A DNA stretch of 64,000 nt from a virus, in the IMG/VR virus record IMGVR_UViG_3300037189_023236; one strand, written 5' to 3'. Of this stretch, positions 13,968-20,869 are shown one piece after another; positions within the stretch are counted from its first letter, which is position 1, and each line of letters starts with the position of its first letter. The notes beneath the pieces are model-generated. The model was given only the letters and a program-made list of their open reading frames with translations. It was not told the DNA's origin and searched no databases. The translations under genes and the position numbers were made by a program.

Positions 13968-14680
13968 GAACGCCTCCAATACGTTCGAATCATTTCTACT
14001 GCGTCTAATAGCTGATCTGTAATACACCAGGCCGGCACATTGCTGTACAACGACTGCTGCGATTCGTAGTCAAAAGCAGCCGGCCATAAATAACGCTCCG
14101 CCGCATCTGCAGCGCCAGCCTGAGTCGCAATGGCGTGGCGAAAAAAGGCCGGAGCGGTTACATAATTTTCGTCGCATAGTGCGCAAGAGTATTGAGCTTC
14201 GCGCGACAACGGAAGCCGCGCTAAACTCTTCAAACGCAAGCCGACAGATCTACCTGCCGTCTCGTAGCTGTCGTTAAGGTACTTGGGGAAAAACGCACAA
14301 TAATCGGTATAAAGCCGATCAGACGTTTTACTACAAAGACTCGTCGGCGAGATTTCTCGTATTTCAAACGAGCCGGTATTGTCGCCGCGGATAACATTCG
14401 CAATCGGCGAGAAATGCGCAGCCACCCAAATACCCGGTTCCGCATCATATGAGTGCAGCATTTTGAGAATACGCGGCCAGACCGGCGTAAACTTGCACCC
14501 AAACGAATCTTCACCGCCGTCCCAGCGCACAGTCTTTTTACACTGCGCAGGACTGTTCAAACTTGTGTTGCCCGTACTGCGCCAGATATATGCGTGGCGA
14601 ATGTAAGCCATCAATTGCGGCGGGCTTAAATACTTATGCCAGTCATACGCCAGGAGCGGCCTAGCGTCGTTATTTTTCAT
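13964..14680 (-). CDS. hypothetical replication-module protein
   Basis: Overlaps both flanking helicase genes; start chosen at MKNNDAR. Confidence 0.65.
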   Translation of the reverse strand: MKNNDARPLLAYDWHKYLSPPQLMAYIRHAYIWRSTGNTSLNSPAQCKKTVRWDGGEDSFGCKFTPVWPRILKMLHSYDAEPGIWVAAHFSPIANVIRGDNTGSFEIREISPTSLCSKTSDRLYTDYCAFFPKYLNDSYETAGRSVGLRLKSLARLPLSREAQYSCALCDENYVTAPAFFRHAIATQAGAADAAERYLWPAAFDYESQQSLYSNVPAWCITDQLLDAVEMIRTYWRRS

Positions 14681-16205
14681 CTCTCCAGCTACGCTGAGCG
14701 TCATTCCAATTTTGCTCCCATCCTAAAAGTTTGTACGAGTTTCGCCTTCCCATACTTTTGCGATAAAACGTCGGATCGAACGTATCCATGCAGTCAATAA
14801 CTTCGCCAAACTCTTTTTTCACGCCGTCAGGAGATACATACACGCGGCTTACGCGGCCTGGCCCCTGCACGTCAACAATATCGCTATCGCGATCATCAGC
14901 GCGGACAAGCAAGTTTAACTGCTCAAAGTCAACGCCAGTAGACCACACATCCGTGGCGATCACGCGGCGCAACTTACCCGATTCGAACTGATCGCGCAAC
15001 TGGTGTTTTTGGTAGTCATTTAGCGGCTTGTAGTCCGCTGGGAGCAACCCGCGTTTTTTGTACGCCGCGCAATCGCTCGGGAACATAGACGAATAGACCA
15101 ACGTGTACTCGGGTAGAAGATGTCCAAGATGCACAGCATGCTCAATCGTCTCTACCAGAATCAAAATCTGATGCGTATCCGGATAGGACCGCACCGCATC
15201 CGCAATCATTTGATTACGCGCAGCATTTGTCCAGATCCCGTAACGTTTCTTAGCTACACGATTTGAGTAACGCTCTACGGGATTAAAGTGCATACGAATC
15301 GGAAGCCACGTTACTCTAATCGGCACAACTAGCCCGAGCTCGACCGCTTGTTGATATGTCAGCTCAAAAATCATTGGGCCAAAAATCGGCTCAAGAACTG
15401 CGTGCGCATTATCCATTCGCGAGTACGGCGTAGCGCTAAGCCCGAAGTTTCTGCTTTGCATGTACCGCCGAGCAATCTCTGTAGAAAAATTAATAGTGGC
15501 TAGCTGGTGTACCTCGTCGCAAAACAAAAAATCCGCGTCGCCATCTGAATGCGCAAGACTGCCCGCGGTAATAACCGTAACGCGCTCCCAATATCGAGAA
15601 CCGTCGCCGACAAAACCGACTTTGGGAATAAAACGCTTTAGCGCTTTGACGATACGCTCGGCTACGTCTACAGATTTGGTAACCACGTGAATTTTGGCCT
15701 GCGGAAACAGCAGAGCTAGCGCGCCAATGCTGGTAGTTTTACCGAAACCTGTTACGGCTTTGATAATTCCACAACGAGATTTGGCAATCATCTTTAAGCA
15801 TTCTTCCTGTCGCGGCCGAAACTCGATTCGACCGTCCAGGTTCTTCCAGTCAGGTGTATAGCAGTCAGGCCGCTTTCGCTTTGGCGACGTATCGGTAAAT
15901 GTTGCGGAGCAGCCAAGTTTTTTCAGGCACGCCGCAAGTCTTGCAAGATAGCCGCTCGGCAGTATTAGTTTGCCGTGCTCATACCGAAATAGTTTGTACT
16001 CAGTTGTCTTAAAATACTGCCGCTGCCCCGTGATTGGATTTCGTTGCGCGGCGCCGTGTAATTGCTCTACATGCTGATATCGCATGTCTTTGGTTATCAC
16101 ATTAACGAATTCCAGATCAAACGGCATGCCGTCGGCACGGGAGAGCGTAAGCGCGTTACCACAACGGTTTAACGCAACAGGAATCTGGCTCCAAGATTCA
16201 ACCAT
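14670..16205 (-). CDS. superfamily 2 helicase (UvsW/XPB-like)
   Basis: FRPRQ Q-motif, TGFGKT, DEVH, GLSATP, STGVD, QGPGRVSR; ATG overlaps the stop of the RAMP-like gene. Confidence 0.9.
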   Translation of the reverse strand: MVESWSQIPVALNRCGNALTLSRADGMPFDLEFVNVITKDMRYQHVEQLHGAAQRNPITGQRQYFKTTEYKLFRYEHGKLILPSGYLARLAACLKKLGCSATFTDTSPKRKRPDCYTPDWKNLDGRIEFRPRQEECLKMIAKSRCGIIKAVTGFGKTTSIGALALLFPQAKIHVVTKSVDVAERIVKALKRFIPKVGFVGDGSRYWERVTVITAGSLAHSDGDADFLFCDEVHQLATINFSTEIARRYMQSRNFGLSATPYSRMDNAHAVLEPIFGPMIFELTYQQAVELGLVVPIRVTWLPIRMHFNPVERYSNRVAKKRYGIWTNAARNQMIADAVRSYPDTHQILILVETIEHAVHLGHLLPEYTLVYSSMFPSDCAAYKKRGLLPADYKPLNDYQKHQLRDQFESGKLRRVIATDVWSTGVDFEQLNLLVRADDRDSDIVDVQGPGRVSRVYVSPDGVKKEFGEVIDCMDTFDPTFYRKSMGRRNSYKLLGWEQNWNDAQRSWRDEK

Positions 16206-19764: not shown

Positions 19765-20869
19765 CTATCTGCTCCTGTTGAAATTTAGCGAATTGCTGAT
19801 CCAGCTCAGTCGTGACGTTCTCTGCCTGTAAAAGAGCTGTAGCCAGCTTCAACGCCTCTGGCTGCGATTTGAGCAACTCGCCAACAACCGTCATCAGATC
19901 ATTGCGCGCGACTGCGCGATTTGTCTCTGTTTCTCCACGCGATTTGTCAACGATTGCGTCGCAAAACAAATGCGCGGAATCGCCAACTGCGGTAGAAATT
20001 CGCAGAAAGGCATCGGGCAGCTTCTTGTCGAACTTAACCCGTACAAGCGGCTTGGCTACCGGTTCCGGCGACTCTTTTACAAGCTCTGCAATAGCGTTAG
20101 TCAGCGCGCCAGCGCAAAGCGTGTCCAATGTTTCCGGATCTTTGACCGTGTAGTTCACAAACCGGCGTGTTTTTAACTGCCGATTATCGCAATAGAATTC
20201 GCCGCTATCTTGGCGGCTAATCGCGAAGAAATACTTATCGGGGGCTTCGCTAATGTCTTGCATGCACGTAGAACCCGGCGACAGCATCGTAATCGGGCGA
20301 TTTTGCGCATTCACACTAGTCGCGGTCTCGGTTACATGAAAGTCGCCGGCGAGGACGATTTTCGCGTGATGGACATCGGTGAGCGCGCATTCAGGGCGCC
20401 CGACGTTCTTCATGAAATCCTGCCACACCTGATGCGTGATCAGGATATCCGTTTCTATTGGAACAGCGCTCAGTGCTTTCTGTATGTCACCCTTGGGCAA
20501 CCAATCGAGGCCGTAGACAAGCGCGCCGTCGATGTTGATCATGGTTTCGTGAATGTGCTTCGGCCATGAATGCACGGAAAGCCAGGGCGCATTCCGATCA
20601 TATTCGTGGTTGCCCTGAATGTAGAAAACAGGTACGCCCGCTGACTCCATTTTTGACATCTGCCGGCATAGCACAGATATCGGGCGCGCGGAATTCGTTT
20701 TCTTCTCGAGCACGTCGCCGCCAAGAATGAGCGGTAACTGCTGCTCAATGCAGTAATCAACAATTTGCTCAAAGCTGTAGTACGCGTCGCCGTAAATCCC
20801 CGGCCGGGTTGTCCATGCGCCGTCAGCAAGATGCGTGTCAGCGCAGAAAACAAAAAGAGGCTTCATCAA
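19751..20869 (-). CDS. sbcD: SbcD/Mre11-like metallophosphoesterase nuclease
   Basis: ADTH, GGD, GNHE, THQ, GDFH, SPGS motifs; overlaps sbcC. Confidence 0.92.
   Translation of the reverse strand: MMKPLFVFCADTHLADGAWTTRPGIYGDAYYSFEQIVDYCIEQQLPLILGGDVLEKKTNSARPISVLCRQMSKMESAGVPVFYIQGNHEYDRNAPWLSVHSWPKHIHETMINIDGALVYGLDWLPKGDIQKALSAVPIETDILITHQVWQDFMKNVGRPECALTDVHHAKIVLAGDFHVTETATSVNAQNRPITMLSPGSTCMQDISEAPDKYFFAISRQDSGEFYCDNRQLKTRRFVNYTVKDPETLDTLCAGALTNAIAELVKESPEPVAKPLVRVKFDKKLPDAFLRISTAVGDSAHLFCDAIVDKSRGETETNRAVARNDLMTVVGELLKSQPEALKLATALLQAENVTTELDQQFAKFQQEQIDAVA

Follow-up and report, generated by a model that had tools for sequence, protein, structure and literature searches.

The pair of genes p309 and p164 lies inside the replication operon of an uncultured phage of about 200 kb, yet the proteins they encode had been predicted to carry folds that underlie RNA-guided systems. 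This raises the question of what such proteins do among replication enzymes: do they form a programmable module that loads or targets the SbcCD complex and a helicase by means of an RNA, as the original prediction suggested, or do the folds serve another purpose? In the following we describe the gene block within the window (the whole analysed stretch of 64,000 nucleotides) and in related phages, the folds of the two proteins and the search for a guide RNA, and we weigh the explanations of their role.

Gene order and conservation of the replication-recombination operon

On the minus strand the genes are ordered as SbcD, SbcC, p309, p164 and an XPB-like SF2 helicase, followed by p246, DnaB, primase, UDG-PolA and a UvsX/RecA-like gene (Table 1). 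The predicted succession of sbcD, sbcC, the 309-aa gene, the 164-aa gene and the SF2 helicase was reproduced with its spacings of -14, 6, 9 and -8 nt, that is, a 14-nt overlap of SbcD and SbcC, a gap of 6 nt from SbcC to p309, a gap of 9 nt from p309 to p164, and an 8-nt overlap of p164 and the helicase. The last value requires that the helicase starts at ATG 16205, the first ATG of the open reading frame being 16256; ATG 16205 is located within GATGGTTGA, which spans the p164 stop, and is preceded by AAGGA 12 nt upstream. The stop of p246 and the DnaB ATG at 13967 overlap in the same manner as ATGA, with a GGAGG site upstream of the DnaB ATG. Tight, translational coupling of the operon is thus borne out by the short gaps and by the start/stop overlaps at p164/helicase and p246/DnaB.

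Table 1. Genes of the replication block in the window, with the matches or features that characterise them
Feature	Coordinates	Strand	Matches and features
208-aa protein, no assigned function	20879..21505	-	first conserved gene of the block
SbcD/Mre11-like phosphoesterase, 372 aa	19751..20869	-	PF00149 Metallophos E 4.5e-8; phrog_100 'SbcD-like'
SbcC/Rad50-like ATPase, 708 aa	17638..19764	-	SMC_N E 1.7e-18; AAA_23 E 6e-16; phrog_77 E 1.5e-34
p309, compact TasR/IS110-like, 309 aa	16702..17631	-	RuvC-like N-domain, about residues 1-120; Nop-like helical C-domain
p164, minimal single-RRM RAMP (Cas7/Csm3/Vipr-like), 164 aa	16198..16692	-	beta-hairpin thumb 77-102; G-loop 131-148
XPB/Rad25-like SF2 helicase, 511 aa from ATG 16205	14670..16205 (ORF to 16256)	-	ResIII, DEAD, Helicase_C; phrog_16 E 2e-36
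p246, 246 aa, between SF2 helicase and DnaB	13964..14704	-	position kept in 39 loci
DnaB-like replicative helicase	12267..13967	-	phrog_19 E 1.6e-12; weak DnaB_C match
DnaG-type primase	11212..12252	-	phrog_47 E 2e-36; DNAG_N E 3.9e-8
UDG-exonuclease-PolA fusion DNA polymerase	8049..11198	-	DNA_pol_A E 8e-44; UDG E 4e-15; phrog_17 E 1.8e-89
UvsX/RecA-like gene	5086-6507	-	downstream of UDG-PolA

Some members of the block are less easily named. The 208-aa protein has no match in Pfam or PHROG, and 37 related loci have its gene upstream of SbcD, with a median identity of 29%. Protein p246 has no match in Pfam, PHROG, NCBIfam or PADLOC and might be a helicase loader, and the open reading frame put forward as an SSB (471 aa, 6538-7953) has no Pfam or PHROGs match. 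The motor domains of the SF2 helicase are closest in sequence to XPB: the best PDB sequence match is archaeal XPBII (6p4f, E 7.4e-13), Rad25 (2fwr) is matched at E 9e-7, and the DinG signal is one weak P-loop match only.

The succession SbcD-SbcC-p309-p164-helicase-p246-DnaB-primase-PolA was found again in 42 of 42 related IMG/VR loci, even where identity falls to 26-37%, and therefore the arrangement is not a matter of chance. A single one of these loci (L038) lacks p164; in the other 41, p309 sits between SbcC and the RAMP gene and p164 keeps its fixed place in the replication block. The survey of relatives shows the two genes to be conserved together in this phage lineage. Moreover, the RAMP and the helicase are the most conserved genes of the block, with median identities to the window of 67% for p164 and 72% for the helicase versus 62% for PolA and 42% for DnaB, and in 37 of 39 loci no more than one gene is better conserved than p164. 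The p164 family comprises 178 clusters at 50% identity. In an exploratory analysis the rate variation of p164 paralleled (partial r 0.5-0.7) that of the SbcD, SbcC and helicase genes and not that of DnaB or p246, a signal that shared phylogeny or saturation can also produce.

The constant partner of p164, by gene adjacency, is the XPB-like helicase. The two genes adjoin in all distant relatives checked, including seven loci at 27-35% identity (L036, L041, L044, L046, L050, L051 and L052), and in three of these (L044, L050 and L052) the RAMP stands beside the helicase with no p309 in the fetched locus. Conversely, genome G008 carries p309 and the helicase with no detectable RAMP. The obligate pair originally supposed is not supported by these loci, and the genes are not "inserted" into the operon. 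A search of the genome collection returned one match only, on a MAG contig, which speaks against a prophage-like or defence-island-like distribution. Altogether, p309 and p164 belong to the core of the replication-recombination operon in a clade of uncultured lytic phages of about 200 kb and are inherited vertically.

Folds of p164 and p309

The prediction of a RAMP fold for the 164-aa protein holds. Its AF2 model is confident (pLDDT 95.3), and in fold libraries released up to April 2026, which do not contain the Vipr structures, its nearest fold is Csm3/Cas7 (Z 12.3, rmsd 3.4 A, 155 of 164 residues), with 222 chains at Z of at least 8 (VIA). Foldseek against PDB gave 129 matches at E<=1e-3, headed by Csm3 (E 6e-7), and among the matches listed all belong to CRISPR effector complexes. 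The RRM (ferredoxin-like) core superposes on Cas7/Csm3. It bears a thumb in the form of a long hairpin (E77-88 and E91-102), variable at its tip and conserved at its base (W80, R82, H99 and E100), as judged by secondary structure and whole-chain alignment and not by a residue-level overlay. Before the last strand lies a G-loop which aligns with that of Vipr and in which G131, G135 and G147 vary little or not at all among 115 diverse sequences. Apart from the two RRM helices the model holds one helix of four residues and no alpha-bundle. On this model p164 is the smallest kind of RAMP, namely one RRM, a beta-hairpin thumb and a G-loop.

At the level of sequence the relationship to Vipr is faint. 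Searched against PDB sequences, the p164 profile has SUSP1 Vipr as its only and top match (E 0.064), on the G-loop and last strand; hhalign gives a probability of 75% over about 36 columns only, and the A3 HMM matches the SUSP1 Vipr ORF at E 0.0033. In the HMM alignment D177, W178 and R179 of SUSP1 Vipr correspond to P138, F139 and N140 of p164, and by this alignment the GGY-reading residues of Vipr are mostly replaced. H99 and E100 are almost invariant among the 115 diverse sequences, and the reason for this constraint is unexplained. Only E3 and E100 exceed 70% D/E, and the alignment columns show no conserved acidic residue in the loop that matches the catalytic-Asp loop of Csm3, the loop which we take to hold the catalytic Asp in both Csm3 and Cmr4. 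Cas6 matches, at Z 6.3, are much weaker than the Z of 12 for Cas7. No PADLOC model matched p164 or p309.

The Nop/IS110 fold predicted for the 309-aa protein was likewise recovered. The AF2 model (pLDDT 92.7, pTM 0.90) combines a RuvC-like with a Nop-like domain and has no coiled coil, and the ten best Foldseek matches are all TasR, IS621 or ISCro4, the IS110 recombinases being matched at a probability of 0.84-0.97. In VIA the model aligns with TasR (9mty) at Z 10.4 over 225 residues spanning residues 8-301, with TasH (21kl) at Z 8.3 on residues 125-308, and with ISCro4 at Z 7.0 over 235 residues, while the N-domain alone resembles the folds of RuvC, RuvX and poxvirus resolvase at Z 5-6.5. Profile matches point the same way: NCBIfam TIGR_Tas_endo is hit at E 0.0027, far below the model cut-off, PF02371 is weakly matched by one family member (E 0.04), and 24 of the 30 named Atlas neighbours of p309 carry PF02371. 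The most conserved part of the protein is the Nop-like half (DPRWY, GL, R220, W228, R247, LRAS and W274).

Of the acidic residues of p309, D/E122 and D176 are conserved. In the RuvC-like half strand 1 ends in His13/Thr14 and strand 4 in Leu-Gly, and no invariant acidic residue was found at either end in 67 sequences. Position 80 is Glu in 37 of these 67 and Cys in the window, and a conserved DEDD tetrad was not found in the alignment. Ser207, placed after a GLTP motif and aligned to the catalytic serine through what is presumably the IS110 'GLxP..SG' pattern, is present in 27 of the 67. Judging from alignment columns, not from a residue-level superposition, p309 is probably nuclease-dead, its RuvC-like domain having lost the catalytic acids.

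Search for arrays and guide RNAs

No array of the VIPR, TIGR or any other tested type was detected in the window or in complete related genomes. For the VIPR pattern, YNNGG never occurs in a run of at least four units in the window, and runs of five units with one mismatch are not commoner than a control pattern in five complete relatives. The window and three complete genomes (G002, G005 and G007) contain no period-5 array with at least three fixed positions over eight units, no array of period 17-19 or 35-37 outside coding Thr-Pro/collagen-like repeats, in a period scan that would miss a few stem-loop units hidden within coding sequence, and no CRISPR array. Beside the two genes there is hardly any intergenic room, only the 6 and 9 nt around p309 and the overlap after p164, and nothing within the window is antisense to the DnaB leader.

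A part for the RNA at 60090-60492, which had been brought into the prediction as a candidate partner, finds no support from its distribution. The RNA is present in G002 according to nhmmer, which missed it in G005 and G007, both of which carry p309 and p164, and BLAST gave no match in G005 or G006. As a whole, the proposal of RNA guidance is weakened by the lack of intergenic room, by the lack of period-5, -18 and -36 arrays, and by the fact that the GGY-reading, RuvC and IS110 Ser residues are not kept. These searches are by nature blind to a single-copy structured guide or to a guide cut from mRNA. Since Cas7-type RAMPs contact the backbone of RNA and show no preference for sequence, an RNA partner is compatible with the missing repeat motif.

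Role of the pair and relation to known systems

The reading we favour, at a probability of about one half, is that p309 and p164 are array-less nucleic-acid-binding accessory proteins of recombination-dependent replication and not a programmable system. Since no guide-RNA array accompanies them, these folds of guide-RNA holders seem to have been co-opted into DNA replication or recombination, and we infer for the pair nucleic-acid binding, a physical RAMP-helicase partnership and a role in one or the other process. Here p164 would hold a single nucleic-acid strand much as Cas7 and Vipr hold RNA. The strand could be displaced ssDNA, or else RNA from a primer or an R-loop, and p164 would hand it over to the helicase or tag it for that enzyme. 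The dead TasR-like p309 might bind a nucleic acid of structured or branched form in the neighbourhood of SbcCD.

Almost all known examples of either fold come from RNA-guided systems, and thus a hidden guide is a real possibility. The pair could be an RNA-guided module whose unconventional guide is either cut out of a phage transcript or encoded elsewhere as a single-copy non-coding RNA, for instance the RNA of about 400 nt at 60090-60492. Held by the Nop-like domain of p309 and coated by p164, this RNA would bring the helicase and SbcCD to an origin, R-loop or recombination site. Both folds hold guide RNA in every characterised relative, the RAMP hallmarks are retained under strong constraint, the Nop-like half is what p309 conserves best, and Xu et al. 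(2026; bioRxiv 10.64898/2026.09.09.750476) leave open another source of guides for array-less compact TasR. We nevertheless regard such a guide as unlikely in view of an operon without intergenic space, the absence of arrays of any tested period from the window and three complete genomes, the absence of antisense to the DnaB leader within the window, the patchy occurrence of the 60090-60492 RNA, and the existence of RAMP and p309 each without the other. A more specific version appears more doubtful still, in which p309 and p164 assemble on a non-array RNA, for example a transcript of the phage at an origin or one structured non-coding RNA, and in which the XPB-like helicase and SbcCD are recruited by an R-loop that the two proteins form or recognise. 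If true, these phages would initiate replication or recombination under RNA guidance, and parts of the CRISPR/VIPR and TIGR kinds would have a housekeeping use, possibly as a relic of a role that preceded their use as weapons.

Conflict systems are usually patchy and fast-evolving. It is for that reason improbable that the pair serves, after the fashion of VIPR or TIGR, as a weapon or a shield in conflicts among phages or with the host, repressing or attacking rival DNA through the helicase and SbcCD as its effectors, loosely comparable to Cas7 with DinG in type IV CRISPR or to those VIPR types in which vap is a helicase or nuclease: p164 surpasses the DNA polymerase in conservation and keeps its place in nearly every locus, the vrRNA or tigRNA arrays are absent from the window and its complete relatives, the GGY-reading residues are replaced, and PADLOC recognises neither protein. 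What speaks for a weapon is that VIPR and TIGR-Tas are mainly phage-borne, with roles in inter-phage conflict or as repressors, that Vipr is paired with helicases or nucleases in some VIPR types, and that dead TasR proteins repress transcription. We give equally little credence to the idea that the two proteins are enzymes instead of scaffolds, p164 being a Cas6- or Csm3-like endoribonuclease that removes primer or R-loop RNA or processes transcripts, and p309 a RuvC-type resolvase acting after SbcCD. The near-invariant H99 and E100, the ribonucleases Cas6 and Csm3 among the fold matches of p164, the resolvase-like N-domain of p309 and its retained D/E122 and D176 would suit catalysis; the Csm3-type loop without a conserved acid, the low Cas6 score, and strands 1 and 4 of p309 without terminal acids, Glu80 being kept in little more than half of the sequences, do not.

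As putative accessory proteins of replication, p164 and p309 can be set against several known systems. The best structural match of p164 is with Cas7-family RAMPs (Csm3 of type III-A and Cas7 of type VII; PDB 8do6, 9g9g, 6xn3 and 8yhd), with corresponding strand/helix order, thumb hairpin and G-loop. These proteins are, however, about 200-300 aa long versus 164 aa, share 6-14% sequence identity with p164 and are encoded with cas genes and an array, whereas the neighbours of p164 are replication genes, with no cas genes or CRISPR array. Type IV CRISPR-Cas, with its Csf2/Cas7 filament and DinG, likewise couples a Cas7-type RAMP genetically to an SF2-type helicase, and p164 aligns with Csf2 structures at Z 9.4-9.8; the helicase there is DinG and here XPB/Rad25-like, and the locus has no Cas5, Cas6, Csf1 or array, so the likeness is one of analogy only. 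Vipr of Escherichia phage SUSP1 (PDB 36pp; bioRxiv 10.64898/2026.04.26.720920,.720927) is a small, phage-encoded, single-RRM RAMP outside CRISPR loci that has the thumb and G-loop in common with p164, and in some VIPR types the accessory gene (vap) codes for a helicase. The vrRNA of VIPR consists of 9-16 tandem pentanucleotide units, YNNGG or another pattern of three fixed and two variable positions. Vipr differs in having vrRNAs, an alpha-bundle and the GGY readers D177/R179, and its locus consists of two genes flanked by long intergenic stretches. The p164 gene has a settled place within a replication operon and is highly conserved, no vrRNA was detected in the window or in complete relatives, and the p164 model lacks the alpha-bundle.

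On the side of p309, the IS110 bridge recombinases (IS621 and ISCro4; PDB 8wt6 and 9t56) share the architecture of RuvC-like and Tnp/Nop-like domains. They are mobile, with an upstream bridge-RNA leader, DEDD and a catalytic Ser, in contrast to p309, which keeps one syntenic position in 42 loci, has no non-coding leader in its upstream gap of 6 nt, does not conserve DEDD and retains the aligned Ser in a minority of sequences. The same RuvC-like plus Nop-like architecture is found in TasR of the TIGR systems (Faure et al., 2025; PMC12045711). TIGR-Tas loci carry a tigRNA array of dual-repeat or stem-loop type, whereas none was found in three complete related genomes, and the TIGR-Tas/TasR literature searched mentions neither a replication-operon context nor a RAMP neighbour. 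Within TasR, p309 resembles nuclease-dead TasR in its unconserved RuvC acids. Compared by published description and not by sequences, it also fits the 'divergent tas clade', which consists of compact TasR proteins without coiled coil or array from densely packed viral genomes (Xu et al., 2026).

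Organization and conservation of the operon

The genes of the window lie almost throughout on the minus strand, and the region 20869-14670 is made up of five ORFs, which encode SbcD, SbcC, a 309-aa protein (p309), a 164-aa protein (p164) and an XPB/Rad25-like SF2 helicase. The first three junctions, from SbcD to p164, measure -14, +6 and +9 nt, and the junction of p164 and the helicase is -8 nt given a helicase start at ATG 16205, which spans the p164 stop (GATGGTTGA) and is preceded by AAGGA. With a good ATG and ribosome-binding site at this position and the helicase in the +1 frame, the idea of a programmed frameshift fusing p164 to the helicase is unneeded. 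Downstream follow p246 (246 aa), a DnaB-like helicase, primase, a UDG-PolA fusion, a 471-aa gene and a UvsX/RecA-like gene. The p246 stop and the DnaB start overlap in ATGA with GGAGG upstream, and p246, coupled in this way, may be a candidate DnaB loader. The gene order and junctions of the original prediction are thus borne out by ORFs and domain matches, whereas its label "SSB" for the 471-aa gene is not, as no match to this gene was found in Pfam or PHROGs. Above-threshold matches were likewise absent for p164 and p246 in Pfam, PHROGs, NCBIfam and PADLOC, p309 drew no more than sub-threshold hints from them, and g208, the conserved protein of the block encoded directly before SbcD, has no match in Pfam or PHROGs.

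Features of the replication block and other stretches discussed in the text (positions are those of the window unless a related locus, L, or related genome, G, is named; median identity is that of each block gene to the window across the synteny loci)
Feature	Position	Strand	Median identity	Match or remark
g208	20879-21505	minus		conserved block protein directly before SbcD
SbcD	19751-20869	minus	58%	Metallophos E 4.5e-8, phrog_100
SbcC	17638-19764	minus	49%	SMC_N E 1.7e-18, phrog_77 E 1.5e-34
p309	16702-17631	minus	49%	309-aa ORF
p164	16198-16692	minus	67%	164-aa ORF
p164 H99-E100	about 16393-16398			thumb base
SF2 helicase	14670-16256 (ORF)	minus	72%	ResIII, DEAD, Helicase_C, phrog_16 E 2e-36
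p246	13964-14704	minus	37%	conserved block protein directly before DnaB
DnaB			42%
Primase			50%
DNA polymerase (PolA)	8049-11198		62%	uracil-DNA-glycosylase-family domain + 3'-5' exonuclease + PolA
471-aa gene	6538-7953
RNase T/DEDD-type exonuclease gene	22499-23065			immediately upstream of replication block
tRNA-Gln(UUG) gene	22268-22338
tRNA-Thr(UGU) gene	53213-53285
RNA of ~400 nt	60090-60492
GGNGTN hexamer repeats	62736-63962	plus		GC skew up to +0.21
ORF with (Thr-Pro)n linker	62107-63999	minus		open at window end
ORFs between p309 and p164	L005:8910-10003; L011:8911-10648; L030:8935-9186
Enlarged helicase genes	L051:1129-3666; L011:10940-13699; L007, L017, L037, L039 around 9450-10850
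Long in-frame tandem repeats	G005:112300-117800 (L081)			periods 21 to 138 nt
Collagen-like in-frame tandem repeats	G002:17100-19320 (L059)			periods 27/36/54 nt

The synteny set consisted of 42 loci from an IMG/VR scan with the p309 alignment. The order SbcD-SbcC-p309-p164-helicase-p246-DnaB-primase-PolA is kept in 42/42 of them, bar local differences, and it holds down to 26-37% identity (L036, L041). One such difference is locus L038, which is without p164; a hidden divergent RAMP at this locus was rejected, since the 237-aa ORF upstream of its helicase reaches an hhalign probability of only 0.2% against RAMP. In three relatives small extra ORFs of 83 to 270 aa sit exactly between p309 and p164, and translational coupling of the two is therefore not obligatory. 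Ranked by conservation, p164 comes first or second in 37 of 39 loci. The original prediction had regarded p309 and p164 as inserted genes; the fixed order and the high conservation argue instead that they are core genes under strong constraint. The three-part polymerase fusion also occurs in L052, a distant relative, where it is 808 aa long.

When 50,697 phage records were searched by megablast and tblastn, the region, p309 and p164 gave zero matches, and the matches of the helicase to cultured phages numbered four, all weak, which indicates an uncultured lineage. Both proteins abound in metagenomes, p309 with 303 and p164 with 236 clusters at 90% identity, on contigs of up to ~200 kb, and for several relatives the ~204-kb genome is complete, terminal repeats included. 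When each prokaryotic species was represented by one genome, the RAMP turned up on a single MAG contig; such near-absence fits a lytic phage gene.

Predicted folds of p164 and p309

When 1.84 billion representative sequences were searched with a profile, the p164 family came to 178 clusters at 50% identity, all of them small, stand-alone proteins. The AlphaFold2 model of p164, built from a 115-sequence alignment, has a pLDDT of 95.3. Foldseek against the PDB returned 129 matches at E<=1e-3 with Csm3 at the top (E 6e-7), and every match among those listed belongs to a CRISPR effector complex. A Foldseek-independent search placed Csm3, Cmr4, Cas7-11 and Csf2 at Z 9-12, and a second fold comparison scored Csm3 at Z 12.3, aligning 155 of the 164 residues at an rmsd of 3.4 A; 222 chains reached a Z of at least 8. 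The model shows the RRM core, an extended beta-hairpin of residues 77-102 where the thumb would be, and the G-loop (G131, G135, S137-P138, G147), all nearly invariant across the family. On its predicted structure p164 is confirmed as a RAMP, as had been proposed. The H99-E100 pair at the thumb base is 98-100% conserved in the 115 sequences, although the sequences that share it differ down to 25% identity, and no nameable known RAMP motif fits it.

For p309, a 67-sequence alignment that takes in relatives of 23-37% identity yielded a model of pLDDT 92.7 and pTM 0.90. Its ten top-scoring Foldseek matches are without exception TIGR-TasR (9mty, probability 1.0) or IS110 bridge recombinases (IS621, ISCro4). 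In a Foldseek-independent search p309 aligned with TasR at Z 10.4 over 225 residues (model 8-301), with TasH at Z 8.3 in the C-terminal half and with ISCro4 at Z 7.0, and residues 1-120 reached Z<=6.7 against generic RuvC/RNase-H folds. Three weak sequence signals agree with the structural ones: a sub-threshold match to NCBIfam TIGR_Tas_endo (E 0.0027), a PF02371 match for one family member (E 0.04), and language-model neighbours, 24 of the 30 named ones carrying PF02371. The proposed Nop/IS110-type fold is thus upheld. Within the alignment, the catalytic acids of the RuvC-like domain are not conserved: strand 1 ends in His/Thr and strand 4 in Leu-Gly, position 80 is Glu in 37/67 sequences and Cys in the window, and the serine following the GLTP motif occurs in only 27/67. 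Conservation is centred on the Nop-like half (DPRWY, GL, R220, W228, R247, LRAS, W274), and a long coiled coil is absent from the model.

The RAMP and its neighbours

The RAMP adjoins an XPB-like helicase in every relative checked. For RAMPs of 27-32% identity, in five loci (L044, L046, L050, L051, L052), the gene immediately precedes that of the SF2 helicase and in most cases overlaps it. The helicase is followed by a gene of ~190 aa and then by DnaB, primase and UDG-PolA, with SbcC upstream of the RAMP. No p309 was found in the fetched loci of L044, L050 and L052, and in L051 the RAMP is immediately preceded by a p309 fragment (E 8e-10). In the related genome G008, 78% complete, p309 and the helicase are present, and the RAMP was not found. 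Adjacency in distant relatives, where p309 is sometimes missing, indicates that the RAMP and the helicase are the old constant pair, and that p309 is their frequent yet dispensable neighbour. In an exploratory comparison of distance matrices, the rate variation of p164 seems to track SbcD, SbcC and the helicase, not DnaB or p246, a pattern that could also arise from shared phylogeny.

A 259-aa RAMP (P0323) that adjoins a short helicase of 411 aa prompted the idea of a domain swap or fusion between the two genes; it was rejected, as BLASTP detected nothing shared and acidic sequence of low complexity makes up the long RAMP tails. In several relatives about 1.2-1.4 kb enlarges or interrupts the XPB-like helicase gene. 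The product in L051 is 845 aa long with a LAGLIDADG domain, so that an intein or homing element probably lies inside this highly conserved gene.

Guide RNAs, probable role and known systems

The original prediction of an RNA-guided system has found no support so far. TRF, repeat finding and Rfam detected no array-like element in the window, and scans for periods of 17-19 and 35-37, run on the window and on three complete genomes, found only coding collagen-like and Thr-Pro repeats. The plus-strand GGNGTN repeats were considered as a Cas7-type RNA array of 6-nt periodicity and rejected, because on the minus strand they read as the (Thr-Pro)n codons (ACN CCN) of a large protein, the variable bases being wobble positions. 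The tandem repeats of the related genomes G005 and G002 (see table) probably encode repeat-rich structural proteins. The ~400-nt RNA is present in G002-G004 and was not detected in G005, G006 and G007, all with both genes; this mildly disfavours an obligate partner, RNA sequence searches being insensitive. No antisense match to the region of the DnaB ribosome-binding site and start occurs in the window at up to 3 mismatches, and the operon has no free intergenic space.

Together with the loss of catalytic and guide-reading residues, the lack of arrays leads away from the known programmable mechanisms. What favours a housekeeping part in recombination-dependent replication is the place of the genes in the operon, along with their close translational coupling and very strong conservation. 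We consider p164 and p309 to be array-less nucleic-acid-binding accessory subunits, with a probability of about 0.5; in this view the RAMP p164 would work for the XPB-like helicase, and p309, the dead TasR-like protein, would act beside SbcCD. That a guide RNA comes from a non-array source is rather unlikely: both folds are scaffolds of RNA-guided systems, and against it stand the replaced residues and the operon without intergenic space. Less probable still is a conflict system, for which the conflict roles of the mainly phage-borne VIPR and TIGR-Tas may speak, set against fixed membership in the replication block. Enzymatic roles for the two proteins are similarly improbable; p309 does have a RuvC-like domain, and its catalytic acids are not conserved.

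Among solved proteins, the p164 sequence profile finds only the Vipr of phage SUSP1 (E 0.064), in a match confined to the G-loop and last strand (hhalign probability 75%), and the p164-family HMM finds the SUSP1 Vipr gene at E 0.0033. These scores do not confirm p164 as a Vipr in the strict sense. A VIPR system combines a Vipr RAMP with vrRNAs, built of 9-16 YNNGG units, and with a vap gene as accessory, which codes for a helicase or nuclease in certain types (bioRxiv 10.64898/2026.04.26.720920,.720927). The window has no YNNGG runs of at least 4 units, and 5-unit searches in five complete relatives gave no matches above control. Non-canonical versions of the period-5 motifs are also known, and a scan that assumed no motif gave zero period-5 arrays of any kind in the window and the complete genomes G002, G005 and G007. 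In SUSP1 Vipr GGY is read by D177, W178 and R179 (bioRxiv 10.64898/2026.04.26.720920,.720927), whereas the residues aligned in p164 are P138, F139 and N140, and the Vipr alpha-bundle is missing from the p164 model. Thus, if p164 binds RNA at all, its partner is not a vrRNA.

Papers of 2025-2026 already describe RAMPs that stand outside CRISPR (VIPR), as well as TasR proteins that are dead or array-less. The literature searched nowhere describes a family of RAMPs that keeps to an XPB-like helicase in the replication operons of phages, or the pairing of such a RAMP with a TasR-like protein. RAMPs (CRISPR, VIPR) and Nop/TasR/IS110 are the two scaffolds of most multi-subunit or compact RNA-guided DNA-targeting systems, and both occur here without an array, as strongly conserved members of the core of a phage operon for replication and recombination. 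In either case the operon supplies small, concrete proteins for expression and testing. If there is no guide, the RAMP and TasR folds have a housekeeping life beyond defence and conflict, a point relevant to the proposal that viral RAMPs predate CRISPR. Xu et al. (2026, bioRxiv 10.64898/2026.09.09.750476) described a long branch of compact TasR without coiled coil or detectable arrays in densely packed viral genomes, a published description that p309 fits, and left open the source of its guide. If there is a non-array guide, the operon would represent a new kind of RNA-guided machine and answer their question on the array-less compact TasR.
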